Shown piece after piece: positions 10,104 through 62,612 of a DNA stretch of 64,000 bases. Position numbers and translations under genes: made by a program. Under the pieces are notes generated by a model. That model did not search any database. It was not told the origin of the DNA and was given only the letters and a program-made list of their open reading frames with translations. Within the stretch, counting starts at the first letter, position 1; the number at the start of each line of letters is the position of its first letter. Origin of the DNA: Patescibacteria group bacterium (GTDB lineage: Bacteria; Patescibacteriota; Microgenomatia; UBA8517); assembly GCA_022868165.1 (NCBI GenBank), contig JALHYA010000001.1:12937-76936 (forward strand), in the 5' to 3' direction.

Positions 10104-10156
10104 GCTGGAGGAATTTTAATACATTTTTCGGAAAAAAATAAGCACGGAATTTGTTC

Positions 10157-10185
10157 TTGACTTCGGGTTTTATTCGGATTATACC
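10157..10185 (+). promoter_or_regulatory. promoter of the ORF86-dinB operon with embedded TTCGGG-N5-TTCGG motif (candidate LexA box)
   Basis: TTGACT (10157-10162), spacer containing TTCGGGTTTTATTCGG (10162-10177), -10-like TTATAC (10179-10184). The ATG at 10195 implies a leaderless or very short leader. Confidence 0.5.
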
Positions 10186-10194
10186 AATATTATA

Positions 10195-12375: not shown

Positions 12376-13140
12376 TTACACTTTAAGTTCAAGGCCATCA
12401 AAGGCGATTCCGAATTTGTCTCCGCCGTGTTCTTTCACAGAAGCTTCCAGCTTGCCATGTGTGTCTGTTTTATGGCCGATATTCGTAAAAAGAACCCTTT
12501 TCGCGTTAACATCCTTGCCAAATCTTAAGCCTTCCTCTATGGTTTCGTGGCCTTTTGCCTGACCATATGATGTTTTGGAAGAGCCGTCCAATATTGCCAC
12601 CTCTATGTCTCCCATCTCTTTTCGGGAAGAAGGGATAATTCTTCTAAATTCCGGTGCATAAACAATAGGCTTCGGGGCTTTGAGTTTTATTGCATAGGCT
12701 TCTTCGGAGCCGTGCTCAACGGGAATCAGCCAGGCATAGGAGTCTTTAGAAAGGCCTATTTTTTCAAAGGGTTTTGCCTCGAGAGTATCGAAAGCCCGCA
12801 TGGAAATTCCTACAAGCCGTCTGGCTTTGGATAAGACTCCGCTTGAGGAAATTAGGGTTATCTTTGGGCCGTTATAGGTATGGCTTAGGTCATAGAGCCC
12901 AAAAATGTGGTCATCGTGGGCATGGGTAAGGATAATATGAGTAATTTTGGTAGGGTCAACATTGTGGGTTTTAATTTCTGTATAAATATCAGGTGAAGCG
13001 TCGAGAAGAATGTTTCGATTTACAAGAAGAGACGGTCTAAGCCGGGTGTCTTTCGGGTCTTGGGAGCTGCAGATTTCGCACTTGCAGCCAAGCCTGGGAA
13101 GAGGCCATCCTGAAGAGGTACCTAAAAAGAGGATTTCCAT
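12376..13140 (-). CDS. MBL-fold metallo-hydrolase
   Basis: HAHDDH motif. Start taken at Met25 (MEILFLG), because the track's N-terminal 24 residues are the reverse translation of tRNA-Leu. Confidence 0.7.
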   Translation of the reverse strand: MEILFLGTSSGWPLPRLGCKCEICSSQDPKDTRLRPSLLVNRNILLDASPDIYTEIKTHNVDPTKITHIILTHAHDDHIFGLYDLSHTYNGPKITLISSSGVLSKARRLVGISMRAFDTLEAKPFEKIGLSKDSYAWLIPVEHGSEEAYAIKLKAPKPIVYAPEFRRIIPSSRKEMGDIEVAILDGSSKTSYGQAKGHETIEEGLRFGKDVNAKRVLFTNIGHKTDTHGKLEASVKEHGGDKFGIAFDGLELKV

Positions 13141-13143
13141 CGG

Positions 13144-13226
13144 TGCTCTCGAGAGGATTCGAACCTCTACAGGATTACTCCCACAGGATCCTAAATCCTG
13201 CGCGTCTACCATTCCGCCACGAGAGC
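13144..13226 (-). tRNA. tRNA-Leu (anticodon TAG), class II
   Basis: Acceptor GCTCTCG/CGAGAGC, D-arm TGGCGGAATGGTAGACGCG, anticodon loop TTTAGGA, long variable arm, T-arm GAGGTTCGAATCCTC. Confidence 0.8.
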
Positions 13227-13323
13227 TTGTAGGTATATTATACCTTTTTATCCCTCTAGGCTGAAAGAAAGTCCGGTAGAATCGATTTTCTTCATAAGCA
13301 GAGCTTGTGCGTCAGATAGGTTC

Positions 13324-15551: not shown

Positions 15552-16031
15552 TTAGGCCTTGGTGAACACCAACAGGAGGGCGAAGACAATGACGATCACG
15601 ATAACAATCACTCTCCTCCTCTTCATATACGGAGAGAGGGGAACCCGTGCAGGCCGTATCGCTTCCCGTTCCTCCACCGTTAGATGTTTGTACTCATCCC
15701 AACCGATCATCTGCCCGGACCTGTCCCTCCTGGGTTCCCACTGCATCATTAAAAACCAACCGATGAATTCGAGGGTGAAACCCAGAAGCCAGCCGATGGC
15801 CGGATGGCGTCCTTTGCCTTTGGCGACTTTTCCACCCAGCCAAGTCCAGGCGGCCAGGTATACCGCAAAACAGCTCGCCTCCGCCAGGCTCCGCCCCAAA
15901 CATAGCCCGTGGGTCTGCCAAACAGGACCGGCTTGGCTGCAGTCTGAGTGGGCACTCGCTGACATGATCCAGAACCAGCAGGCTGTTATGTACAGGATTG
16001 CCGGTGCTGCAAGAACCCATTTCTTCTTCAT
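15552..16031 (-). CDS. high-GC membrane/lipoprotein-like protein (island gene X)
   Basis: RBS AGGAGGG 5 nt upstream of the ATG. N-terminal signal with ITAC lipobox-like segment, C-terminal IVIVIVIV TM helix. Coding GC is markedly higher than the surroundings. Confidence 0.55.
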   Translation of the reverse strand: MKKKWVLAAPAILYITACWFWIMSASAHSDCSQAGPVWQTHGLCLGRSLAEASCFAVYLAAWTWLGGKVAKGKGRHPAIGWLLGFTLEFIGWFLMMQWEPRRDRSGQMIGWDEYKHLTVEEREAIRPARVPLSPYMKRRRVIVIVIVIVFALLLVFTKA

Positions 16032-16134
16032 CACGCCCTCCTTGTGGCGAATTATTTGACCGGATTGTCAAGGTGCACAAAAATGCCCGATGTTTCGGGC
16101 AAGTAGCTATATTGTACTTCAATAGGTCAATTTT

Positions 16135-16252: not shown

Positions 16253-16678
16253 TCAATGCGCCTCAGCGCTCCACTCCCATTCTCCCAGTTCACATCTTGT
16301 TGTCTGTCCGAACGATAACTCCGGCCTCAGGTCAATCGTTCCACTCGCCTCCGTCGGCGACGTAAACCGACCCTCCGCCTCCCCGATGCTTGACGAGGAG
16401 ACATTAATGCTGCCATCACGAATCGGAAACGGCATTCCGGATGCCTGGCTGGCCCATGACCCGGCTGAAAACCCGTCGCATCGTACGTCCGTAAGGCTGA
16501 AACCCACAAACGTGATGGCCGCTCCGTCGTCCGAAACGGTAAAGGTGAACGTGCCGCTGCTGGCCCCTCCACTGATATCGATAGGACCGCTGAATGTGCT
16601 CCCAGGCTCAGGCATTGAAGTCCCGCCGCATGCAACCAAAAGCACTGCGAGTAGCACGAGATACATATGCCGTTTCAT
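16253..16678 (-). CDS. high-GC lipoprotein (island gene Y)
   Basis: RBS AGGAGGG then ATG. MKRHMYLVLLAVLLVAC with lipobox LVAC. Ser/Gly/Thr-rich mature part. Start taken at Met17 of the track ORF. Confidence 0.55.
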   Translation of the reverse strand: MKRHMYLVLLAVLLVACGGTSMPEPGSTFSGPIDISGGASSGTFTFTVSDDGAAITFVGFSLTDVRCDGFSAGSWASQASGMPFPIRDGSINVSSSSIGEAEGRFTSPTEASGTIDLRPELSFGQTTRCELGEWEWSAEAH

Positions 16679-16767
16679 CTCGCCCTCCTTGTGGCGAATG
16701 TGTGACCGGATTGTCAAGGTGCACAAAAAACCCGCTTATACGGGCAGTTCCTATATTATACTCTTAG

Positions 16768-16840
16768 TGAGCCGCCCGAGACTCGAACTCGGAACCGTTA
16801 CCTTAAGAGGGTACTGCTCTACCGATTGAGCTAGCGGCCC
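16768..16840 (-). tRNA. tRNA-Lys (anticodon CTT)
   Basis: Acceptor GGGCCGC/GCGGCTC, D-arm TAGCTCAATCGGTAGAGCA, anticodon loop CTCTTAA, T-arm CCGAGTTCGAGTCTCGG. Confidence 0.8.
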
Positions 16841-16852
16841 AAACGCACAAAT

Positions 16853-18277
16853 TCAGGCTATTTTACCATTTCGGGGAATCGAAAGCGAAATAATTTTTCT
16901 CAACTCGTCGATAATAATCCAAAAATCGGGCTTCTCGAGCGTTATCATCTGGAATTGAACGGCGTTGGTAAACACTTTGGAATCTTTTGCGAGTCTAAGA
17001 GAACCTACAAAAAAGCCCGAATTTTTGGGCGATGTCCCCCTAAAGAAAAGTATCCCTGTTCTTCTTGGCTCGATCTCGCCGAAAATCGGAATTTGCAAAT
17101 CTATGTTTTTGTTATCCAGCATTAGAGAAAGTTCTCCGTTTTTCCAAATCGATTGTCCCGTATTTTTGGCCAGAGCAATACCCCAAAACGTTTGATTGGA
17201 ACCAAGAAACGGCGGAATAAATAAGGCCATTATCTCCCCCGAGGTTTCCTGTTGGGGTTTCCCCGATTGTTTCGTCAGCGACGACACATCGTCGTAGAAT
17301 TTATAAAATTTTCCTGCGCTTTGTTTCCAACTGAATTGGGCAAAAAGCCCGTCGGTATAGGAAAGAATAAAAGGAGTTACTGCTACCACTCTTTTATCGT
17401 TCCATACGCTTTCGAAAGCAAATTTGAATTTGTCTCCCAAAGAGTCAGGATTTAAAAAGGCCCTTGTTTTCGGGTCGTCCGTTGTATGTGCCCAACCGGT
17501 TTCGGTGATAAAAACCGGCAGCTCTTTTTTAACCCCCAGAGAAGATAAAAGACTCAATTCCCAAACATAAGTTCTTACGGAACCTCGGCCGGTATCCGTT
17601 TCCGAACCGGTAAAATTGGGATTCGGATATGAGTGGGAAGACCATCCGTCAATGTATTTCAGGGCATCCGGAACGCTACTCACCATATTGGTCAAAAAAG
17701 TGGCCTCGTCCGTTGTATCTTTGGAGTTGGGAGCAGAAGCATCGAAACCCGCAGGCAGGACAAAATAATCAGGATTGTCGGCTTTAAGCTTTGAAGAAAA
17801 TGCCAAAAGATACTCTCCGTATTCTTTGGGGTTAACGAAACCTCCCCACTCCTTGGCGTGGTTGGGCTCGTTTCCGATTATGATATAGCGGTTTTTTATT
17901 ACCCAATTGAGACCGTCAAAAAAAGATATCCAGCCGTCTATTTCATCGGTAGAGGGTTTTTCCCAAGTCGAACCGTCTCCTACACCTTGTGTTGCTATTC
18001 GCACGATAGGAATAAGGTGGGCTCTTCTGGCCTGGTCGAATACCTTCTGCCAAGTGTTTATATCTCTTTGATTCTTTTGAATGACTAAAGTGATGTAGCC
18101 CCAATCCCCCCCGGTGGAATTTACCAAATGAGCAGCATCCTGCAAATCGGAAGAGTTTTCTATATGTATCCCGAATTTGTTATTGGGAACGCTTGTAGGG
18201 TCGTAGATTGCTAATGTTGTTGATGGTATTAGAACAAGAAGAGCCAAAGCAATGAAGATGCAAAAGATTTTTTTCAT
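16853..18277 (-). CDS. secreted glycoside hydrolase, GH5-like
   Basis: IIGNEPN (catalytic acid NEP) and ITETGW (nucleophile TE) motifs. Signal peptide MKKIFCIFIALALLVL. Start at Met13 of the track ORF, 7 nt after the tRNA-Arg 3' end. Confidence 0.6.
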   Translation of the reverse strand: MKKIFCIFIALALLVLIPSTTLAIYDPTSVPNNKFGIHIENSSDLQDAAHLVNSTGGDWGYITLVIQKNQRDINTWQKVFDQARRAHLIPIVRIATQGVGDGSTWEKPSTDEIDGWISFFDGLNWVIKNRYIIIGNEPNHAKEWGGFVNPKEYGEYLLAFSSKLKADNPDYFVLPAGFDASAPNSKDTTDEATFLTNMVSSVPDALKYIDGWSSHSYPNPNFTGSETDTGRGSVRTYVWELSLLSSLGVKKELPVFITETGWAHTTDDPKTRAFLNPDSLGDKFKFAFESVWNDKRVVAVTPFILSYTDGLFAQFSWKQSAGKFYKFYDDVSSLTKQSGKPQQETSGEIMALFIPPFLGSNQTFWGIALAKNTGQSIWKNGELSLMLDNKNIDLQIPIFGEIEPRRTGILFFRGTSPKNSGFFVGSLRLAKDSKVFTNAVQFQMITLEKPDFWIIIDELRKIISLSIPRNGKIA

Positions 18278-18284
18278 CAAAATA

Positions 18285-18358
18285 AGTGACCCAGGCGCGA
18301 ATCGAACGCGCAACCTACTCCTTAGAGGGGAGCCGCTCTATCCAATTGAGCTACTGGG
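18285..18358 (-). tRNA. tRNA-Arg (anticodon TCT)
   Basis: Acceptor GACCCAG/CTGGGTC, anticodon stem GCTCC/GGAGT, loop CCTCTAA, T-arm GCGCGTTCGATTCGCGC. Confidence 0.8.
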
Positions 18359-18364
18359 TCTCGG

Positions 18365-18436
18365 AGCGGGCGATGGGAATTGGACCCACTGTCTCTTCCT
18401 TGGCAAGGAAGCGTTTTACCGGTAAACTACGCCCGC
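18365..18436 (-). tRNA. tRNA-Gly (anticodon GCC)
   Basis: Acceptor GCGGGCG/CGCCCGC, anticodon stem CTTCC/GGAAG, loop TTGCCAA, discriminator U. Confidence 0.75.
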
Positions 18437-18439
18437 GCA

Positions 18440-18460
18440 GTGCCGAGGGCGGGACTCGCC
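18440..18460 (-). repeat. orphan copy of the 3' end of tRNA-Leu(TAA)
   Basis: GAGTCCCGCCCTCGGCACT (19 nt) duplicates the T-arm/acceptor 3' strand of the adjacent tRNA-Leu (18523-18609). No matching 5' half is present. Confidence 0.6.
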
Positions 18461-18522
18461 GTGCAAAGCATTATACCTTACCTGGCGCTATCGATCCCGA
18501 CCTTGAGCACGAGTCATCGAGT

Positions 18523-18609
18523 GCCGAGGGCGGGACTCGAACCCACACGAGGGATTTTACCCTCAAGGGATTTTAAGTCCCTTGTGTCTGCCAATTCCAC
18601 CACCTCGGC
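18523..18609 (-). tRNA. tRNA-Leu (anticodon TAA), class II
   Basis: Acceptor GCCGAGG/CCTCGGC, D-arm GTGGAATTGGCAGACAC, anticodon stem AAGGGA, loop CTTAAAA, long variable arm, T-loop TTCGAGT. Confidence 0.8.
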
Positions 18610-18690
18610 TAGCCACGTAATTATACGACATAATTGACAACTTCACACCATTTGCTTAAGCTGGAATAGACAGCGAAGGGGGGTGAAATA

Positions 18691-20296: not shown

Positions 20297-20324
20297 GCAG
20301 CCTTTTTGATATAATAAATGACTT

Positions 20325-20877: not shown

Positions 20878-21141
20878 ATGTATAAAGTTTATTTGCTTAG
20901 AAGCAAAAAGATAGCAAGCAAATCATACATTGGAATAACTATTAAGTCTGTACATGAACGCTTACAAGAACATAATGAAGGTTTATCTAGATATACCAAA
21001 TCGTTCAGACCTTGGGAGATAATTTACTATGAAAATTTTTATTGTAAAACATGCGCAAAACAAAGAGAAAAGTTTTTGAAGTCAGGATTTGGGTATCGTT
21101 TTAGAAAATTGATCCTAGAGAGTTATACTAAACTTAGATAA
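20878..21141 (+). CDS. GIY-YIG nuclease-domain small protein
   Basis: MYKVYLL...YIGITIKSVHERLQEHNEG (GIY-YIG/URI motifs), 87 aa. The track ORF upstream of this Met is read-through of tRNA genes. Confidence 0.65.
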   Translation: MYKVYLLRSKKIASKSYIGITIKSVHERLQEHNEGLSRYTKSFRPWEIIYYENFYCKTCAKQREKFLKSGFGYRFRKLILESYTKLR

Positions 21142-21252: not shown

Positions 21253-21323
21253 GCGGGATTAGTTAATCGGCTTAACAACAGCTTTCCAAGCTGTGAAGAG
21301 GGGTTCGACTCCCCTATCCCGCT
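21253..21323 (+). tRNA. tRNA-Gly (anticodon TCC)
   Basis: Acceptor GCGGGAT/ATCCCGC, anticodon stem ACAGC/GCTGT, loop TTTCCAA, discriminator U. I first misread it as Trp and corrected the call on re-folding. Confidence 0.75.
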
Positions 21324-21356
21324 CCGAGTCTTCGAGGAGAGGGTCAAGGTAATCCT

Positions 21357-21371
21357 TATCCCGCTCCGAAT
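21357..21371 (+). repeat. orphan duplicate of the tRNA-Gly(TCC) 3' end
   Basis: CTTATCCCGCTCCGA repeats CTATCCCGCTCCGA (21314-21327), 35 bp downstream of the tRNA. Confidence 0.5.
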
Positions 21372-21373
21372 AT

Positions 21374-22090
21374 TTATTGAGCCGCTTTGGAGCTTCCTAC
21401 AAGTACTATCACATCAGAAGTTTCACCCGAAGGCAGAGACTGAGTTTTAGGATCCACCGAATACTTTTTGGACAAGGTTTCGGATAATTTCGTTACGAAA
21501 ACCGAGTCTATGCTTGTTCGGGTCTGTAAAACAGTATCCGTAAAATTATAACTATCCGCATTTCCTGTACCGGAGACTTTAAAACCTGCGGTTGTCAATA
21601 AATCTTGAACCTTTCCTGCTTCCCCTGCTATTCCGCTACCGTTTAAGACTTTAATTTGATATTTGGCTAAGTCAACCTCAGCTGAAGGAGAAGACGAAGG
21701 AGTCGGCAGAGATGACTCTATAGGCGTAGGGGTGGACGAAGAAGCATTTTTGTTTACGGAGTTAAGAAAATAAAAGACACCACCAGCCAAAGCACCAACT
21801 ATTATTGCAACAGGAATCATTATCCAGAATATGTACCAAAGAGATTTTTTCTCTTCGGTGGCTTTGGGAGATTCGGATTTGGGTTCTTTGGCTTCCTCTT
21901 TTTTCTCTTCTTTCGGTTTCTCCGGCTCGGGAGATTTATTCTCCTCCGTGGATTCTTCCTTTACCTCTTCGGCGGGAAGCTCGTCTATCTTTGCTGGCAT
22001 TTGGGCTTCTTCCGCTTCGGCGGTTTCTTGAGGCTCCTTAATCTCTTCTACCACCACTCTTTTTCTGTGTTCTTCGTCCTTTTTTGGCAT
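21374..22090 (-). CDS. LytR_C (cell-envelope-related attenuator C-terminal) domain protein with acidic N-terminus and TM helix
   Basis: VLNGSGIAGEAGKVQDLLTTAGFKVSGTGNADSYNFTDTVLQ matches the LytR_C pattern. Glu/Lys-rich N-terminus, one TM helix. Confidence 0.55.
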   Translation of the reverse strand: MPKKDEEHRKRVVVEEIKEPQETAEAEEAQMPAKIDELPAEEVKEESTEENKSPEPEKPKEEKKEEAKEPKSESPKATEEKKSLWYIFWIMIPVAIIVGALAGGVFYFLNSVNKNASSSTPTPIESSLPTPSSSPSAEVDLAKYQIKVLNGSGIAGEAGKVQDLLTTAGFKVSGTGNADSYNFTDTVLQTRTSIDSVFVTKLSETLSKKYSVDPKTQSLPSGETSDVIVLVGSSKAAQ

Positions 22091-23970: not shown

Positions 23971-24038
23971 AACAGAAGTCAATCGTACCTTCATAGACTG
24001 CGGATTCTTAAAAATTAGTATCAGGTATAATATCTCCA

Positions 24039-24983
24039 ATGCTTATAGATGAGATTGCTGTGGTTTTCAAAGGAGGAGATGGTGGAAATGGAAAAGTATC
24101 CTTTGGAAAGATGCTTCGATCTGGTCCAGATGGTGGAAATGGTGGAGATGGAGGAGATTTGTATCTGGAAGCTGCCTCAGATTTAACCTTACTTAATCAA
24201 TTCTCAGCTAAGGACGAGATTCAAGCCCAAAATGGTGAGTCTGGGCGTAAAAACAAAATGTCTGGAGTCAAAGGTTCAGATATTGTTTTATTTGTTCCTT
24301 TTGGAACAAACATTAAAGATGTAGAAACTCTTGAGGAGTGGAATTTGGAGAAGGTACACGAAAGAATTCTTCTTTGTAAGGGAGGGGTACGGGGAAAAGG
24401 AAATTGGGAATTTAGAAGTCCAACCAATACTACCCCAAGGTATGCAGAGTCAGGTGAAAGGGGGCAAAAAAGAAATCTTTTTCTTACTTTGAAGTTTATT
24501 GCAGACTTTGGCCTTATTGGTCTACCTAATACAGGAAAAAGCAGTTTACTCAAGGAACTAACAAATGCCAAACCCAAAATTGCCAGTTATGCATTTACTA
24601 CTCTTTCTCCTAATTTGGGGGTGATAGAAAATGGCAAGATAATTACAGATATTCCTGGCCTTATTGAAGGAGCCCATTTAGGTAAGGGGCTAGGTATTAG
24701 ATTTTTGAAACACATTGAGAAAGTAAGACTCCTTCTTCACTGCATTTCTTCCGATTCGAAAGACGCAATCAAAGATTATCAGGTCGTAAGAAATGAGCTC
24801 GGAAGCTACAACAAATTGCTTCTCACAAAAAGGGAGATTATTCTTCTGACGAAATCCGACCTCCTTGATTCATCTGAATTAAAAAAGAAACTTAAAGAGT
24901 TGTCTAAAACAACTAAAACTGTAATAAAACTTTCAATCTATGACCACCCAAGTTTGGAAGCGCTCAAGAAGGTGTTAATATAG
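24039..24983 (+). CDS. obg: GTPase Obg
   Basis: Gly-rich Obg fold (VVFKGGDGGNGKVSF, GGNGGDGGDLYL) followed by a G domain. Confidence 0.85.
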   Translation: MLIDEIAVVFKGGDGGNGKVSFGKMLRSGPDGGNGGDGGDLYLEAASDLTLLNQFSAKDEIQAQNGESGRKNKMSGVKGSDIVLFVPFGTNIKDVETLEEWNLEKVHERILLCKGGVRGKGNWEFRSPTNTTPRYAESGERGQKRNLFLTLKFIADFGLIGLPNTGKSSLLKELTNAKPKIASYAFTTLSPNLGVIENGKIITDIPGLIEGAHLGKGLGIRFLKHIEKVRLLLHCISSDSKDAIKDYQVVRNELGSYNKLLLTKREIILLTKSDLLDSSELKKKLKELSKTTKTVIKLSIYDHPSLEALKKVLI

Positions 24984-36770: not shown

Positions 36771-36822
36771 AAGTAAAATTTTTTGGATTATATACTAGCC
36801 TTACTTAAAAATAAAATGGCGC

Positions 36823-36851
36823 TTGACATCTTCGGGTTTTATTCGTATTGT
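36823..36851 (+). promoter_or_regulatory. lexA promoter with embedded TTCGGG-N5-TTCG motif (candidate LexA autoregulatory box); leaderless
   Basis: TTGACA (36823-36828), 17-bp spacer containing TTCGGGTTTTATTCG (36831-36845), -10-like TATTGT, and ATG at 36857 only 5-6 nt after the -10. Confidence 0.55.
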
Positions 36852-36856
36852 TAATT

Positions 36857-37480
36857 ATGGCGCCAATAATATACAAAAGGCAATCTCAAATACTTGATTT
36901 CATTAAGCAACACATCCAAACTACGGGCGGCGCTCCCACTTTAAGAGAAATTGCCGAAGCAATCGGCGTTTCATCTCTGGCTACCGTTCACGAACACCTT
37001 GAAGCGCTTGAGGCAAAAGGTTTAATAAAACGAAAAGCCGGCAAGGTCAGAACCATTGAACTCACTCAAGTGACCGAAGAGTTCTCGTCCGACGGAATGA
37101 ATGTTCCTATTCTCGGTTTTATTGCGGCCGGTGCTCCTATCGAGCCTTATACCGACCCAAATGCTTCTATGGAGATTCCTTCACCTTTTGTTTCGGGCAA
37201 AAAAAGGGTATATGTTCTTCAGGTGCGGGGCGAATCGATGATTGAGGAACAAATAAGAGACGGAGATTATGTTGTAATTGAGCAAACCGATAATGCGACC
37301 AACGGGGAAATCGTCGTTGCTTTACTCGATAACGGCATGGCTACCCTCAAAAGGTTCTTCAAGGAAGCCACCAGGATTCGCCTTGAGCCCGCCAACGCCA
37401 AAATGAGCCCCATATTCGTTAAAAACGTAAGAATACAGGGGAAAGTTGTTGGGCTTATCAGGAAATACGGGAGAAATTAA
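36857..37480 (+). CDS. lexA: LexA repressor
   Basis: MAPIIYKRQSQILDFIKQHIQ...LREIAEAIG (wHTH) and C-terminal S24 peptidase domain (VRGESM ... K). The track start at 36848 is a TTG, and the ATG is at 36857. Confidence 0.85.
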   Translation: MAPIIYKRQSQILDFIKQHIQTTGGAPTLREIAEAIGVSSLATVHEHLEALEAKGLIKRKAGKVRTIELTQVTEEFSSDGMNVPILGFIAAGAPIEPYTDPNASMEIPSPFVSGKKRVYVLQVRGESMIEEQIRDGDYVVIEQTDNATNGEIVVALLDNGMATLKRFFKEATRIRLEPANAKMSPIFVKNVRIQGKVVGLIRKYGRN

Positions 37481-46511: not shown

Positions 46512-47009
46512 CTATCTCACCCCCTTTACACTGTAAGCATGACATAAAGCGACCGCCAATGCATCTGCCGCATTATCAAAATGAGTTTTTTTGTGCGCCT
46601 TGCTCCTTATGGCATTTCCCAAAATTTTTCTAACCGCCTTCTGCATCATTTTTTTATCCGCGCGTCCGTCTCCACCTACCATCTTCTTAATCGTTCCAGG
46701 AGCATATTCAAAAACATCGACTTTTTGCTTTGCCGCAGAAAAAATCAGAACTCCTTTTGCCTCGCCTACACTCATTGCGGTCTTTGCGTTCGCGGCAAAA
46801 AAAAGTCGTTCGATTGCTACAACATCGGGATTATGTTTTTTGAGAAGAAAAGTCATCTGTTTGTGAATACTTATAAGTCTCTTTCCCGGATTTCCGTTTC
46901 TTTCGGTTTCAATAAGGCCATACTCTACGGCTTCAAATTTTTTTAGGGAAACCTTAAGAAGCCCATACCCTGTTGTGGCCGTTCCGGGATCAATGCCTAA
47001 AATAAGCAT
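46512..47009 (-). CDS. ruvC: Holliday junction resolvase RuvC
   Basis: MLILGIDPGTATTGYG matches RuvC. The track ORF starts at a TTG (47027), and the ATG is at 47007-47009 with TATAAT 6 nt upstream (leaderless). Confidence 0.8.
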   Translation of the reverse strand: MLILGIDPGTATTGYGLLKVSLKKFEAVEYGLIETERNGNPGKRLISIHKQMTFLLKKHNPDVVAIERLFFAANAKTAMSVGEAKGVLIFSAAKQKVDVFEYAPGTIKKMVGGDGRADKKMMQKAVRKILGNAIRSKAHKKTHFDNAADALAVALCHAYSVKGVR

Positions 47010-47033
47010 AGGCTGATTATACAACAAGCGCTA

Positions 47034-47289: not shown

Positions 47290-47549
47290 AGCAGGCGCTG
47301 CGAGAAAACTAGTGAGGACAATCCTCAGCTACAAGCAGCAACCTGCCCCGAGTATTTATGCCGACGGCACAACCTGTGGAGACAACCCGCCTCGCAGAAT
47401 GAGGTAAGTTGTGCAACCCATGCACCGCCGGCAGGAAACCGCCTAGGACGCGCGCTGCCATGAACAGCTGTCACCGAAACACCGAGAGGGGCGGCGTTTC
47501 GGCCAAGTGTCCTAGACGGTCGCCGTTCCGGCAGGATGCCGGAACAGCT
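47290..47549 (-). ncRNA. GC-rich structured RNA-like region downstream of the atypical tRNA-like gene; unclassified
   Basis: By eye about 60% GC versus low-to-mid 40s elsewhere. On the minus strand there is a perfect 8-bp hairpin TTCCGGCA-TCC-TGCCGGAA and a 7-bp hairpin CCGAAAC...GTTTCGG. It ends with two hairpin+T-run elements at about 47290-47330. Track ORFs 47325-47621 and 47409-47666 lie on opposite strands with no RBS. I found no match to RNase P, SRP or tmRNA motifs. Confidence 0.35.
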
Positions 47550-47636
47550 ATGCTGACGCCAGGATTTGAACCTGGAACCTTCCGGGTGCGCACCGAGCGA
47601 GTTACCCGAACGCTCTTCCAATTGAGCTACGTCAGC
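47550..47636 (-). tRNA. atypical 87-nt tRNA-like gene (anticodon arm non-canonical; identity unresolved)
   Basis: Canonical acceptor GCTGACG/CGTCAGC, D-arm TAGCTCAATTGGAAGAGC and T-arm CCAGGTTCAAATCCTGG. The 36 nt between is GTTCGGGTAACTCGCTCGGTGCGCACCCGGAAGGTT, which has no standard 5-bp/7-nt anticodon arm; best alternative folds are given in the corresponding finding. TTGACA-17-TATATT promoter upstream. Confidence 0.4.
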
Positions 47637-57509: not shown

Positions 57510-59291
57510 TCAGCTTATCATTTTTTCGAACTCCTTCAAGCTCCTTGTATTTACAATATCATCTTTGGTTGCCCAGCCTCTTCTGGCCACGGTAATCCCA
57601 TATTGCATATTATCTAAACCGTTCTTGTGGTGGGCATCGGTACCCATGCTCAGCATAATTCCTTCTTTCACGGCTTCTTTCACCAAAGTATCGGGTAAAT
57701 CCAGCCTGATAGGGTCGGCATTTATTTCCAACCATTTGTCGTTTTTTAAGCAAAAATCGAATATCTTGGGCCAATCGACTTCAACACCTTCCCTTTCGTT
57801 CAATTTTCTGGCGGTAGGGTGGGCGAATACCCTAACTTTTGGGTGCTCTAATGCCTTTAATACGCGCGATGTCATCTTCTCGCGGGGAAGATCAAAGCTT
57901 GAATGAATCGAAACAAGGGCAAAATCCAAAGTATCCATTCCTTCATCCGGAACAGGCAATCCGCCTTCGGGCAAAATGTCGATTTCGAGGCTATTGAACA
58001 CTTTTTGTACGCTTTTACAATGACTTTTCACAAATGAGTAATTTAATTTGTCTACAGCCTCACGCTTACGCATGAGTAAATCTATTATCTGTTTCTCGTT
58101 ATGTCTGCTTTTGCTTGGGTTATGCTCCGTGAAAGCTATATATTCATAATTAAGCGAATCCGCTCTCTCGATTACTTCCTCCATTGTGGATGCACCAATA
58201 TCGTGGCTTGTTTCTATGTCGAAGCTTGAGTGTATCTGAAGGTCGGCTTTGATGTCGGCGAGTTCGACCAGGACAGGGAGTTTTTGGGATAAAGCGGACT
58301 CAATCTCCCCCGAATCTTCCCTAAGCTCTGGAGGAATCCATTCCATGCCCAAGAATTTATAGAAACTTTCCTCGTCGTTAAACTTTCGAATTTCGTGCTT
58401 CGAATTTCGTGCTTCGCGAATACCGTATTCGCTTAAGCTCAAGCCTTTCTTAAGCGCGTATTCGCGTAGGGCAATATTATGGTGCTTTGAGCCCGTAAAG
58501 TGCTGCAAAAGAGCTCCGTATGCCTCGGGAGACTGAACCATGAGGTCAACCTGAATATCGCTGGGAACGATAATTGAGGCTGTCCGGTCCCCTTTTTCGA
58601 TAATTCTTGTCAACTTCGGATACTTTGTGAAGTGCCCCAAAACCTCTTCCGGCTTTTTGGTGGCAACAGCAATATCGATATCTCCGACTGTTGCTGCCTC
58701 GCGTCTAAGGCTACCCAGCGTATTAATCTCCATAACCGACTTGTTTTGTTTCATCCATTCAATTACACCTTCAGCCGTAGCTTTGGCATATGGAAGAAGC
58801 ATTCTGCGGGTTTTTCCTTTGGACTCCTCCAAGGCCGTGAGAATTTTACTCTGGGACTCCTCCCCAAAACCTTCCAATTTTGCTATTTTGCCCGACTTTG
58901 CGGCCTTTTCAAGGTCGGCCAAACTCTTTATCCCAAGCTCCTTGGCAAGCCTGAAGCCGGTTTTTGCTCCCACGCCGGGAAGCTCCATAAATTCGAACAT
59001 TGCGGGAGGCAAACCTTTCATAACAGCCTCGAAATGTTTGGACTTTCCGGTTCTGAATAGCTCGTCCAAATGTTCGGCGATAGATTTTCCTATTCCGGGT
59101 ACCTCATCAAGCTTTGCGTCGTCCCAAAGGTCCTTAAGCTCGCTGGAGGCGTGTTCTATGGCATCCGCGGCCCTTTGGTAGGCAATAATCCTGAATTTGT
59201 TCCTATCGGCATCTTTTAGCTCGTAAGCTGCGGCTACTGAGCGCAGAAGCTCCGCAATCTGAAGATTATTCATCTCTTTGGAAGTCTTCAT
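57510..59291 (-). CDS. polX: family X DNA polymerase with C-terminal PHP domain
   Basis: Pol-beta-like HhH N-terminus (NNLQIAELLRS...GIGKSIAEHLDE), NTase core, C-terminal PHP motifs. Confidence 0.8.
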   Translation of the reverse strand: MKTSKEMNNLQIAELLRSVAAAYELKDADRNKFRIIAYQRAADAIEHASSELKDLWDDAKLDEVPGIGKSIAEHLDELFRTGKSKHFEAVMKGLPPAMFEFMELPGVGAKTGFRLAKELGIKSLADLEKAAKSGKIAKLEGFGEESQSKILTALEESKGKTRRMLLPYAKATAEGVIEWMKQNKSVMEINTLGSLRREAATVGDIDIAVATKKPEEVLGHFTKYPKLTRIIEKGDRTASIIVPSDIQVDLMVQSPEAYGALLQHFTGSKHHNIALREYALKKGLSLSEYGIREARNSKHEIRKFNDEESFYKFLGMEWIPPELREDSGEIESALSQKLPVLVELADIKADLQIHSSFDIETSHDIGASTMEEVIERADSLNYEYIAFTEHNPSKSRHNEKQIIDLLMRKREAVDKLNYSFVKSHCKSVQKVFNSLEIDILPEGGLPVPDEGMDTLDFALVSIHSSFDLPREKMTSRVLKALEHPKVRVFAHPTARKLNEREGVEVDWPKIFDFCLKNDKWLEINADPIRLDLPDTLVKEAVKEGIMLSMGTDAHHKNGLDNMQYGITVARRGWATKDDIVNTRSLKEFEKMIS

Positions 59292-59293
59292 AC

Positions 59294-59314
59294 AAATCCA
59301 TTATATATGGATTT
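59294..59314. promoter_or_regulatory. perfect 8-bp-arm palindrome AAATCCAT-N5-ATGGATTT between tRNA-Asp and the polX start
   Basis: aaatccattatatatggattt; it ends 2-3 nt before the polX ATG. It could be an operator, or an RNA hairpin in a tRNA-Asp-polX co-transcript. Confidence 0.5.
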
Positions 59315-59404: not shown

Positions 59405-59571
59405 AAACCGCTTGTATTTTATCATCCCAAGTAATTACGGTCAAAATGCCCTTGACTTATAGCATATGATACTTTAAATTCAGCACACATCTTCCTGCCT
59501 TAAGGAGGTGAACAAATCTGAATATAAAAGACACTCTTAAGGCAATCAAACTCAACGAATCTACTATCAGC

Positions 59572-60066: not shown

Positions 60067-60098
60067 GTGCATATGGCTGGTGTATAATTCGCATAGTT

Positions 60099-60169
60099 GC
60101 GGGATTAGTACACCGGTAGTACGCCACCTTCCCAAGGTGGAGAAGCGAGTTCAATTCTCGTATCCCGCT
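60099..60169 (+). tRNA. tRNA-Gly (anticodon CCC)
   Basis: Acceptor GCGGGAT/ATCCCGC, D-arm GTACACCGGTAGTAC, anticodon stem CCACC/GGTGG, loop TTCCCAA. TATAAT promoter at 60083-60088. Confidence 0.8.
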
Positions 60170-60176
60170 CAGTTGT

Positions 60177-60794
60177 ATGATTGAAAGAATTACTTTGCCA
60201 GGAGAAATAGATGGACATGGGTTCCTCGAAATGTACTTACGAGAATGTATCTATTTAAACTGTGATAGTGGTATTAATTATTTACCAAAACCCTACGAGT
60301 ATGCTGATATTCAACAAGCAAGAATTGATCCATCAGAAGTAAAACCAACGGCAAAATATGTCTTGCGAAGCAATCTGGCAACAATTGAAGCTTTGGACAA
60401 AGAGCTGTCAACACAAGGAATAGATATATTTAATCTCCACGGTGTTATAAAGATAGATGACAATAACTATATTTGTCCTCCTATTTTAGAGGTTTGGAAA
60501 GAAAAACCTTACAACGGAATTCCTGTCATAGTTGACGGACTCCATCGCTTATATATTGCCAGAAAAAGAGGCATTGAGATAAATTGCGTCCTAATTTCCG
60601 GTGAAATCTCCAGTATGCTTCCTGTATTACCACTGACAGGTTGGCATGAAGTGGTTGAACAAGACGCTGTACCCAAAGATAAACGTAACTATCACCCGGG
60701 AATACCGGCTCATTGGAAACCTCACGAGTTATATAGACGGAGATTTCATGGTTCTACGGGTCCAAGAATAGTTTTGAGTACAAGTAATACCTGA
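60177..60794 (+). CDS. ParB/Srx-like nuclease-domain protein (second paralog)
   Basis: 205 aa with VIVDGLHRLYIARKRG (DG.HR..A motif). The ATG is 7 nt after the tRNA-Gly(CCC) 3' end. Confidence 0.45.
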   Translation: MIERITLPGEIDGHGFLEMYLRECIYLNCDSGINYLPKPYEYADIQQARIDPSEVKPTAKYVLRSNLATIEALDKELSTQGIDIFNLHGVIKIDDNNYICPPILEVWKEKPYNGIPVIVDGLHRLYIARKRGIEINCVLISGEISSMLPVLPLTGWHEVVEQDAVPKDKRNYHPGIPAHWKPHELYRRRFHGSTGPRIVLSTSNT

Positions 60795-61492: not shown

Positions 61493-61518
61493 TGGTTCTA
61501 CTCCCATATCCCGCTCCG
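61493..61518 (+). repeat. orphan tRNA-Gly(TCC)-like 3' fragment (T-arm plus acceptor 3' strand)
   Basis: GGTTCTACTCCCATATCCCGCTCCGG versus the tRNA-Gly(TCC) 3' end GGTTCGACTCCCCTATCCCGCTCCGA, about 23/25 identical. There is no matching 5' half. Confidence 0.6.
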
Positions 61519-61556
61519 GCTTTGACTTCTCGATTTCTTCGTGATATTTTGTGCGT

Positions 61557-61754
61557 ATGGAAAGAGACAGAAATAGCGCTAGATTCGGCGTTTTAGAAGT
61601 CTTGGATAAAACCGGGGCGGATGCCGCTTCCAAAGGAGCAAGAAACGCTGCCAACTTTTTATTCGAAGTATCCAGAAAACTTAGTGCAAAATGGTGGCCA
61701 CGACGCATAGAAGATCCCAAAGCTGAAAGAGTTGCAGACGCTCACATCCCCTAA
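61557..61754 (+). CDS. small hypothetical protein (65 aa), leaderless
   Basis: TTGACT-17-TATTTT promoter ending 6 nt before the ATG. Host-like codon usage. Start at Met3 of the track ORF. Confidence 0.4.
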   Translation: MERDRNSARFGVLEVLDKTGADAASKGARNAANFLFEVSRKLSAKWWPRRIEDPKAERVADAHIP

Positions 61755-61820
61755 TTATTTGGGGTGCTTCTTAATCACAACCTCGTCAGCCTCATTGATG
61801 ATATAATTCGAGTTAGTTAA

Positions 61821-61892
61821 GCCAACGTAGCTCAGCGGTAGAGCAGTCCCTTCGTAAGGGAAAGGTCGGTGGTTCAATCCCACCCGTTGGCT
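61821..61892 (+). tRNA. tRNA-Thr (anticodon CGT)
   Basis: Acceptor GCCAACG/CGTTGGC, D-arm GCTCAGCGGTAGAGC, anticodon loop TTCGTAA, T-arm GGTGGTTCAATCCCACC. Confidence 0.8.
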
Positions 61893-61895
61893 CAG

Positions 61896-62612
61896 ATGGC
61901 AAGGTATTACTCAAGGTTGGCATCGGTTGAAGAAAAGCGCAACATTCGCCGGGCTTTTATATTTGGAGTCCTCACAATCGCGGCGATTGTTTTTTTGTTC
62001 ACAATCGGCCTTAACGTACTTACAAAATTCGTGGGAGTTATTTCCGACTTAAGAAAAACGTCCACTCCAATCGAAAAAACGGATACCACTCCTCCACCGC
62101 CCCCACGACTTGATACTCTTCCGGATGCAACCAATAATTCCAAAATTCAGATAACAGGAAGCTCCGAACCCGGCTCCACGGTTGAACTTTTTGTTAACGG
62201 AGCAAAAAACGAATCTTTAGCCGGAAACGACGGTGTATTTTCTTTCGATATCTATTTGGATAACGGCTCAAATAACATTTATGCCACGGCGAAAGACTCG
62301 GCCGGCAACGAAAGCGGTAAAACTCCCACTTATGAAGTCATATATTCGAAAAATCCTCCCAAAATAGACATCTCCAGCCCAAGCGACGGGGCAAAATTCT
62401 ATGGTAATAAGCAGCAGCAGATTACTATTTCCGGCAAGACCTCTCCCGACTCTTCGGTTACCATAAACGATAGAATCGTCGGCCTCCAAGATGACGGCTC
62501 CTTTTCCTCGTCGGTTTTCCTCAATGATGGCGACAATACATTTAAGATAAAGGTTCAGGATAAGGCTGGAAATACGGCCGAAAAATCAATTACGGTTAAC
62601 TATTCTCCCTAA
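61896..62612 (+). CDS. membrane-anchored protein with tandem Ig-like domains
   Basis: Start at Met10 (MARYYSRL...TM helix), 3 nt after tRNA-Thr. A PPPPP linker, then two ~90-aa beta-rich repeats (…GSTVELFVNG…; …SVTINDRIVG…). Confidence 0.55.
   Translation: MARYYSRLASVEEKRNIRRAFIFGVLTIAAIVFLFTIGLNVLTKFVGVISDLRKTSTPIEKTDTTPPPPPRLDTLPDATNNSKIQITGSSEPGSTVELFVNGAKNESLAGNDGVFSFDIYLDNGSNNIYATAKDSAGNESGKTPTYEVIYSKNPPKIDISSPSDGAKFYGNKQQQITISGKTSPDSSVTINDRIVGLQDDGSFSSSVFLNDGDNTFKIKVQDKAGNTAEKSITVNYSP

Follow-up and report, generated by a model that had tools for sequence, protein, structure and literature searches.

We describe four genes in a 64,000-nucleotide (nt) stretch of the genome of a Patescibacteria group bacterium (Microgenomatia; contig JALHYA010000001.1), referred to as the window, whose start codons lie 3 to 9 nt downstream of a tRNA gene. 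They encode an MBL-fold hydrolase, a 474-amino-acid (aa) secreted protein, a ParB-CE domain protein and an Ig-like domain protein. We propose that these genes form tRNA-mRNA dicistrons, in which RNase Z-type cleavage behind the tRNA would release a near-leaderless mRNA that is translated independently of a Shine-Dalgarno (SD) sequence. We assign this reading a probability of about 0.58.

Four genes start within a few nucleotides of a tRNA

The window has a GC content of ~44 % and carries 19 tRNAs in 64 kb; homologues of its MBL hydrolase bear the names Candidatus Woesebacteria, Microgenomates or Patescibacteria, which places it in a Woesebacteria-like genome of the Candidate Phyla Radiation. 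The tRNA 3′ ends given by ARAGORN and by Rfam coincide, and the junctions were read directly from the sequence. The features concerned are as follows.

13237 to 13242, minus strand: -10 box TATAAT of tRNA-Leu(tag), 10 nt upstream of the tRNA 5′ end
13144 to 13226, minus strand: tRNA-Leu(tag), trailer CCG, CCA not encoded (ARAGORN; Rfam, 61.6 bits)
13144 to 13140, minus strand: junction, discriminator 13144, CCG, ATG at 13140; gap 3 nt
12376 to 13140, minus strand: MBL-fold hydrolase, PhnP/RNase Z-like, 254 aa (Pfam)
18620 to 18625, minus strand: -10 box TATAAT heading the tRNA cluster below, 10 nt upstream of tRNA-Leu(taa)
18287 to 18609, minus strand: tRNA cluster of Leu(taa) (18522-18609), Gly(gcc) (18365-18436) and Arg(tct) (18287-18360)
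18470 to 18475, minus strand: second TATAAT of this cluster
18287 to 18277, minus strand: junction, discriminator 18287, CTTATTTTG, ATG at 18277; gap 9 nt
16853 to 18277, minus strand: 474-aa secreted protein, stop codon 12 nt before tRNA-Lys(ctt)
16768 to 16840, minus strand: tRNA-Lys(ctt), 3′ of the 474-aa open reading frame (ORF), followed by an intrinsic terminator at 16730-16745
60083 to 60088, plus strand: -10 box of tRNA-Gly(ccc), TAGATA-17-TATAAT, 10 nt upstream of the tRNA
60099 to 60169, plus strand: tRNA-Gly(ccc), trailer CAG, no CCA (ARAGORN, Rfam)
60169 to 60177, plus strand: junction, discriminator 60169, CAGTTGT, ATG at 60177; gap 7 nt
60177 to 60794, plus strand: ParB-CE domain protein, 205 aa (Pfam)
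61802 to 61807, plus strand: -10 box TATAAT of tRNA-Thr(cgt), 13 nt upstream of the tRNA
61821 to 61892, plus strand: tRNA-Thr(cgt), trailer CAG, no CCA (ARAGORN, Rfam)
61892 to 61896, plus strand: junction, discriminator 61892, CAG, ATG at 61896; gap 3 nt
61896 to 62612, plus strand: Ig-like/Glucodextran_B domain protein, 238 aa (Pfam)
59289 to 59305, minus strand: polX start, TATAAT (59300-59305), 8 nt, ATG at 59291

An earlier note on this DNA had described four tRNA-to-gene gaps of 3 to 7 nt. Its values hold for Leu(tag) (3 nt), Gly(ccc) (7 nt) and Thr (3 nt); the end of tRNA-Arg(tct) had been placed at 18285, which is 2 nt too far, and with the discriminator at 18287 the gap is 9 nt and not 7. 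The 39-nt gap with a hairpin between tRNA-Asp (discriminator 59331) and polX (ATG 59291) is present as it was described, and the hairpin includes a TATAAT followed by 8 nt and the ATG, so polX has a leaderless-type promoter of its own.

Every junction tRNA, or the first tRNA of its cluster, is preceded by a consensus -10 box 10-13 nt upstream of the mature 5′ end, and the genes that follow are devoid of comparable signals. No SD was found in the four gaps or in the 3′ halves of the tRNAs before them, a scan for sigma-70 promoters and terminators gave no site inside the four tRNA-to-ATG gaps, and a -10-like hexamer (at least 4 of 6 matches, with A2 and T6) placed 4-12 nt before the ATG occurs in 0 of 20 short-gap junctions of the window and its relatives. 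Gaps of 10 nt or less never have an SD, while several gaps of 14-22 nt do, for example AAAGGGGGT in the relatives' loci L039 and L043 (loci of related genomes are given by such numbers throughout). With neither kind of site in the gaps, a transcript begun at the tRNA promoter must continue into the ORF.

The tRNA -10 boxes of the window lie 9-13 nt from the mature 5′ end (13227-13242, 18610-18625, 20311-20324, 59405-59421, 60083-60098 and 61802-61820). This spacing predicts 5′ leaders of ~2-6 nt on the tRNA precursors, a very short stretch for RNase P.

Not one of the 19 tRNAs in the window encodes CCA, and to become functional they need an exact cut at the 3′ end and then the addition of CCA. 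From what is established on tRNA processing, a more distal cut with exonucleolytic trimming would destroy an ORF that begins 3-9 nt away. C74 is kept in 18 of the 19 and is nearly universal in Microgenomates tRNA genes (window and L003-L051), even where CA is missing. Full CCA is encoded in Woykebacteria-like loci, and at the tRNA-adjacent junctions of the relatives L003, L037 and L040. The C74 pattern suggests either 3′ cleavage after C74 or a nuclease/CCA-adding system of unusual specificity. Co-transcription of tRNA and ORF and cleavage at the tRNA 3′ end are near-certain inferences from the sequence; where exactly the cut falls, and that ribosomes use the processed RNA and not its precursor, is inferred with less certainty.

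Short gaps recur in related genomes

We counted junctions in which an ATG-initiated ORF on the same strand, 100 codons or longer, begins within 300 nt of a tRNA. Gaps of 10 nt or less make up 4 of the 8 such junctions in the window, compared with 6 % for random anchors (P = 7.5e-4), and 21 of 82 in the relatives (P = 1e-8, a value that is ascertainment-biased). The gap distribution in the relatives is bimodal, since 30 junctions do not exceed 22 nt, only 4 fall at 23-50 nt and the other 48 are longer. The non-CPR (Candidate Phyla Radiation) loci that were fetched hold only ~7 tRNAs, too few to serve as a control for tRNA-to-gene gaps.

Individual junctions are shared across lineages. tRNA-Leu(tag) precedes the MBL gene in 7 other loci (L003/L004, L019, L027, L037, L040 and L045; Woese-, Woyke- and Curtissbacteria-like; L003 shares a contig with L010), with gaps of 3, 6, 8, 1, 8, 9, 8 and 8 nt in the window and these relatives. 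The gap sequences are unrelated, and the proteins are 38-63 % identical to the window MBL. Similarly, tRNA-Thr(cgt) precedes the Ig-like gene in L069, L072, L073 and L075 with gaps of 9, 7, 9 and 8 nt, where the window has 3. On this evidence from gene order, both junctions are ancient and not recent insertions.

When the same genes lie away from a tRNA, they often carry a -10 box at a similar position. Orthologues of the 474-aa gene have TATAAT 10 nt (L011) or 8 nt (L017) before the ATG, the Ig-like orthologue in L074 has TATAAC+9, and ParB-CE orthologues have TAAAAT+13 (L069), TAAAAT+7 (L071) or, in the WWE3 genome L070, an SD. MBL genes off a tRNA have a -10 box 5-11 nt before the ATG in L018, L021, L023, L033, L035 and L036 and an SD in L041 and L050, the remainder being operon-internal or unclear. 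The end of a tRNA and the start of transcription thus appear to be interchangeable ahead of these genes.

Several unrelated genes follow tRNA-Leu(tag) within 1-22 nt in other genomes, and the Ala, His, Lys, Gln, Val and Phe tRNAs each provide single short-gap cases in the relatives. One explanation for the origin of some of the junctions, complementary to the mechanism proposed here, is that tRNA 3′ ends are recombination or integration hot spots where cassettes land and are expressed by read-through. The many different genes behind tRNA-Leu(tag) in different genomes fit this idea, as do partial direct repeats of tRNA 3′ ends: tRNA-Gly(ccc) 60149-60170 recurs at 61495-61516 (22 nt, 82 %, 1346 nt downstream), bracketing the ParB-CE gene and a 180-aa ORF; tRNA-Leu(taa) 18520-18539 recurs at 18439-18458 (100 %, 81 nt downstream); and tRNA-Gly(tcc) 21312-21332 recurs at 21354-21374 (86 %, 42 nt downstream). 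Furthermore, tRNA-Arg(tct) and tRNA-Lys(ctt), which flank the 474-aa gene, are adjacent in L003 (7560-7745) and L005 (6308-6535), which marks that ORF as an insertion into a tRNA cluster. However, the segment bracketed by the Gly(ccc) repeat has no integrase domain, L069 shows the same order of tRNA-Gly, ParB-CE, tRNA-Thr and Ig-like gene, though with other genes in between, and the two conserved junctions, of Leu(tag) with MBL and of Thr(cgt) with Ig-like, are old; neither the MBL nor the Ig-like unit showed a repeat of its tRNA 3′ end. Insertion would also leave the translation of the genes unexplained. As the origin of some of the junctions we consider it somewhat unlikely.

Two further observations belong to these loci. 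A repeat at ~9380-9430 in L069 resembles the partial tRNA 3′-end repeats of the window, all of them att-footprint-like with no integrase nearby, and the TAAAAT for tRNA-Lys lies within the 3′ end of the 474-aa ORF.

Leaderless-type starts in the rest of the window

The tRNA-adjacent genes stand in a genome where starts close to a promoter are common. A TATAAT-like hexamer (at least 5 of 6 matches) is found 6-11 nt upstream of 17 of the 61 first ATGs in the window (28 %), compared with ~3 % of internal ATGs. In the relatives (609 ORFs) the figures are 18 % and ~4 %, with a peak at 6-10 nt. SD-like motifs are hardly enriched (18 % vs 15 %), and just 1 of the 17 genes with an adjacent -10 box also has one. 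Inspection by eye gives ~22 unit-first genes of the window with an adjacent -10 box (e.g. lexA, ruvC, obg, polX and gatC), 4-5 tRNA-adjacent genes and ~7 with a strong AAGGAGG-type SD (e.g. starts 16031, 16678, 18691, 46511, 61430 and 7473), the others being operon-internal. Examples of the first class are listed here.

36823 to 36859, plus strand: lexA, TTGACA-17-TATTGT-5-ATG (36857)
47007 to 47021, minus strand: ruvC, TATAAT, 6 nt, ATG (47009)
24026 to 24041, plus strand: obg, TATAAT, 7 nt, ATG (24039)
61522 to 61559, plus strand: ORF 61557, putative 65-aa ORF, TTGACT-17-(TG)TATTTT, 6 nt, ATG

The -10-adjacent starts that had been claimed for lexA, ruvC and ORF 61557 are as described. The same claim for ORF86 (10195) fares less well: its box is only TATACC, 9 nt from the ATG. 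ORF86 is a conserved protein whose orthologues have leaders of 9-17 nt, some with an SD. As for the earlier note's broader suggestion of pervasive leaderless translation, it is the architecture that the counts support at the level of sequence: a leaderless-type organization appears pervasive, with most unit-first genes predicted to be led by TATAAT or TAAAAT without an SD.

This predicted background is a member of a known bacterial leaderless architecture, group C of GeneMarkS-2, in which a Pribnow box lies ~6-10 nt before the starts of first genes in operons (PMC6028130). As in the window, genes with an adjacent -10 box and no SD are mixed with SD-led genes in group C, which comprises Actinobacteria and Deinococcus-Thermus (PMC6028130). 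It differs in that the host here is a CPR/Microgenomates bacterium, in that the spacer mode is ~9 nt in the window and 6-8 nt as reported for M. tuberculosis, which implies leaders of 1-4 nt in many cases, and in that the group C concept does not include 5′ ends derived from processing.

The promoters of lexA (36815-36856) and of ORF86 with a Y-family polymerase (dinB-like; 10150-10194) share the box cTTGAC(A/T)-TTCGGGTTTTATTCG, which is kept upstream of ORF86 orthologues in L004, L007, L009 and L012. This lineage probably uses it as its LexA operator (SOS box), which would lie across the -35 element and the spacer. Among the few window genes with a classical leader and SD are two tandem genes on the minus strand (15552-16100, 159 aa; 16253-16750, 141 aa, with a lipoprotein-type signal). 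Their upstream regions are near-identical, with a terminator hairpin and TTGTGCACCTTGACAATCCGGTCA..ATTCGCCACAAGGAGGGCG.GATG, and represent a local duplication.

A proposed route from tRNA maturation to translation

We propose the following sequence of events. The MBL, 474-aa, ParB-CE and Ig-like genes, which have no promoter of their own, would be driven by the -10 box of the tRNA or tRNA cluster, RNA polymerase producing tRNA and ORF as a single RNA. Maturation of the tRNA 3′ end would be endonucleolytic, an RNase Z-type enzyme cutting 3′ of the discriminator or perhaps of the conserved C74, and the need for CCA addition makes this step obligatory. The same cut would free a 5′-phosphate mRNA with a leader of 2-9 nt, similar to the 0-4 nt implied for genes with an adjacent -10 box, and this mRNA would initiate by the SD-independent, 5′-end-proximal route that promoter-proximal leaderless genes would use. 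The part of the earlier note that had tRNA 3′ processing generate mRNA 5′ ends is supported in part: at the level of sequence it fits the gaps without SD, -10 box or terminator, the CCA-less tRNAs and the orthologues that exchange a tRNA for a -10 box, and the cut as the source of the translated mRNA is a proposal. Its mention of RNase P as a second source of such ends is excluded, as this enzyme cuts on the 5′ side of a tRNA.

Stated for Microgenomates as a whole, the proposal would be that tRNA 3′ maturation doubles as mRNA 5′-end formation, by way of conserved tRNA-mRNA dicistrons, 5′-monophosphate near-leaderless mRNAs and ribosomes specialised for leaderless initiation; this general form is tentative, and we rate it slightly below even odds. 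A bolder extension is that the PhnP/RNase Z-like MBL protein encoded after tRNA-Leu(tag) may itself take part in the cleavage and so release its own mRNA.

Several points count against the proposal. The loci of the relatives were fetched by means of the MBL, ParB-CE and Ig-like genes themselves, which biases the statistics, and manual subtraction of the MBL and Ig-like pairs leaves ~11 of 72 junctions. The distance from a gene's stop codon to the next ATG is 10 nt or less in 28 % of cases in the same genomes, which makes the tRNA-to-ATG distance ordinary operon packing, and compaction alone explains the distance. No canonical rnz was found in the 64-kb window, whose only MBL-fold protein is PhnP-like and scores 54 bits where the RNase Z equivalog cut-off is 293 bits. 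Leaders of 7-9 nt exceed those of classical leaderless mRNAs, and in E. coli a few extra 5′ nucleotides lower leaderless initiation. RNase J prefers 5′-monophosphate RNAs, which could make the processed mRNA short-lived. For RNase Z of the B. subtilis type, CCA acts as an anti-determinant, and the C74 or full CCA found at some junctions would therefore require a different cleavage specificity. Finally, the Ig-like ORF has, 78 nt from its start, a terminator-like hairpin with a T-run (ACAATCGCGGCGATTGT TTTTTTG; 61974-61990, plus strand) that could limit or attenuate read-through from tRNA-Thr; such hairpins are about as numerous in the scan as chance predicts.

An alternative view is that compaction is all there is to explain, tRNAs being packed like any other gene. 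The ORFs would then be translated by some general SD-independent mode, such as recognition of an unstructured A/U-rich start region, from a transcript that is not processed or is processed to a variable extent, with the 5′ tRNA at most a stabilising structure. The proportions of short distances are indeed alike (28 % from stop to ATG, ~22-26 % from tRNA to ATG in the relatives), and SD-independent initiation must be general given that SD-like motifs are barely enriched anywhere. Folding predictions do not discriminate: start regions are weakly structured in both forms, with a mean P(unpaired) of 0.46-0.66 in the precursor and 0.43-0.71 in the processed RNA. What is unusual at these junctions is the consequence of the spacing, namely that after a tRNA there can be no translational coupling and no space for an SD. 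Coupling explains short gaps between genes but is impossible after a tRNA, and a folded tRNA 1-9 nt from the AUG would presumably fill the space that the 30S subunit needs for upstream mRNA. Moreover, the CCA-less window tRNAs need a 3′ cut in any case, so that a processed mRNA necessarily exists, and it is specifically in place of the tRNA that orthologues put a -10 box at leaderless distance. We therefore regard compaction without a role for processing as distinctly unlikely.

A cryptic promoter inside each tRNA would offer a route independent of processing, to a primary transcript that is leaderless or has a short leader. The T-arm motifs TTCGAAT and TTCAAT are loosely -10-like; they lack A at position 2, however, and lie 16-17 nt from the ATG and not 6-11. 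Together with the negative hexamer count and sigma-70 scan of the junctions given above, this makes such promoters very improbable.

The start codons at the junctions are conserved

No database record was found with exactly the MBL sequence of the window. The N-termini of 26 MBL homologues, most of them 254-255 aa long, have in common M1 and the motif xILFLGTS. M1 of the ParB-CE protein is invariant and M(A/I)ERI conserved in 16 homologues, and the PGAP/NCBI protein is the identical 205 aa. For the Ig-like protein the PGAP/NCBI call is the identical 238 aa, most of the at least 120 homologues listed are 236-239 aa long, and the N-terminus M..YSRL.S.EEKRN is conserved. The 474-aa protein opens with the signal-peptide-like MKKIFCIFIALALLVL, and its orthologues with MKLRKFILILLL and MKKLLTILLIL. 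Among the genes with an adjacent -10 box, LexA, RuvC and Obg match full-length NCBIfam equivalogs from residue 1 (in LexA, residue 7 aligns to profile position 6), which validates their starts.

Mis-assigned start codons, with the true starts downstream behind an SD or another signal and nothing unusual at the junctions, are exceedingly improbable: other in-frame codons do exist (an ATG at +54 nt in the ParB-CE gene, a TTG at codon 8 of the Ig-like gene) and automated callers disagree at the junctions, some running into the tRNA, but conservation extends from M1 onward in 26 MBL, 16 ParB-CE and more than 100 Ig-like homologues, the codon-8 TTG reads CTG in L069, the signal peptide of the 474-aa protein starts at its ATG, and none of the alternative starts is preceded by an SD. 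On this N-terminal conservation, with no SD at the alternatives, we also reject the use of downstream SD-led starts, which the earlier note had named as an outcome that would speak against it.

Gene callers extend tRNA-adjacent ORFs into the tRNA. The MBL homologue P0001 (93 % identical) was called with 278 aa and not 254, and the Ig-like ORF at 3486-4229 of L067 with 247 aa instead of 238. In CPR assemblies, the start sites of genes next to a tRNA are thus called wrongly in a systematic way.

Comparison with known systems

The arrangement, as proposed, resembles the tRNA punctuation of animal mitochondria (Ojala/Montoya/Attardi), in which tRNAs abut ORFs at 0 to a few nt, endonucleases excise the tRNAs and the (near-)leaderless mRNAs are translated without an SD. 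The analogy, which the earlier note had drawn, holds for a tRNA that abuts an ORF without promoter, SD or terminator, and fails in that tRNAs do not flank most mRNAs here. The tRNA-led genes are 4 of ~60 in the window, and a single ORF, that of the 474-aa protein, has a tRNA at either end (Arg(tct) at 9 nt, Lys(ctt) at 12 nt). Further, the units of the window have sigma-70-type promoters of their own and are not parts of genome-length transcripts, and gaps are 1-9 nt as opposed to 0-2 nt in mitochondria.

Within bacteria, the E. coli operon thrU-tyrU-glyT-thrT-tufB provides a protein gene co-transcribed from a tRNA promoter. There, tufB is preceded by a leader of ~100 nt that includes an SD, CCA is encoded in the tRNAs, RNase E/P and exonucleases separate the products, and the mRNA does not become leaderless.

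Also comparable are the plant tRNA-snoRNA and Nanoarchaeum equitans tRNA-C/D box sRNA dicistrons, in which the RNase Z cut 'automatically generates' the downstream 5′ end (PMC3491384). There too the tRNA carries the promoter and the downstream gene, itself promoterless, follows directly, in one case in a symbiont with a minimal genome (PMC3491384). CCA-less tRNAs are the canonical substrate in these dicistrons, which corresponds to the window (0 of 19 tRNAs with CCA) and not to some of the relatives, where CCA is encoded. They differ in that the released RNA is a small non-coding RNA, whereas here it would be the mRNA of a conserved protein in a bacterium. The window units would thus work like mitochondrial punctuation and like the RNase Z dicistrons, and are a member of neither.

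A mycobacterial paper cites tRNA punctuation for mitochondria alone. In the library searched, neither leaderless translation nor tRNA punctuation is reported for CPR, Patescibacteria or Saccharibacteria, no relevant paper treats RNase Z in CPR, and no transcription start site study was found for Microgenomates.

If the proposal is true, CPR bacteria couple tRNA maturation with mRNA 5′-end formation as mitochondria do, and would provide a bacterial counterpart of mitochondrial tRNA punctuation in a free-living lineage. They would also be an independent case of extreme genome reduction reshaping gene expression, through promoters shared with tRNAs, loss of leaders and low use of SD. The proposal predicts 5′-monophosphate ends at discriminator+1 in CPR-rich metatranscriptomes. 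For annotation, Prodigal-type callers run these ORFs into the tRNA, and many CPR starts will be placed wrongly by start models that rely on SD. The conserved pair of tRNA-Leu(tag) and MBL gene, in turn, points to an uncharacterised RNase Z/PhnP-like enzyme.

Other genes near tRNAs

The MBL protein matches Pfam Lactamase_B_2 and Lactamase_B, to which the precomputed Pfam annotation of its homologues adds Anti-Pycsar_Apyc1. Its closest PDB entry is 6b9v, followed by PhnP, PqqB and RNase Z. The protein carries a CxCxxC motif at its N-terminus and falls below the cut-off of every NCBIfam equivalog. Its link to tRNA is suggestive. For the 474-aa protein, the label 'GH5' given in the earlier note has no backing, as no Pfam, NCBIfam or PDB match was obtained.

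An 87-aa GIY-YIG nuclease ORF (20878-21141, plus strand) lies between tRNA-Phe and tRNA-Pro, 22 nt after tRNA-Phe, without an SD or -10 box, and its homologues are found near tRNAs in L017, L027 and L032. On the minus strand, 47551-47636 is a tRNA-like gene (Rfam tRNA, 56 bits, only the tRNA model matching; Ser(act) according to ARAGORN). It has a 20-nt anticodon-loop region with an insertion of ~13 nt, and is the sole window tRNA without C74. Directly 3′ of it, the region 47300-47550 (minus strand) has no Rfam match and is predicted to form a GC-rich and very stable RNA structure with a minimum free energy of -123.6 kcal/mol (z = -6.3).

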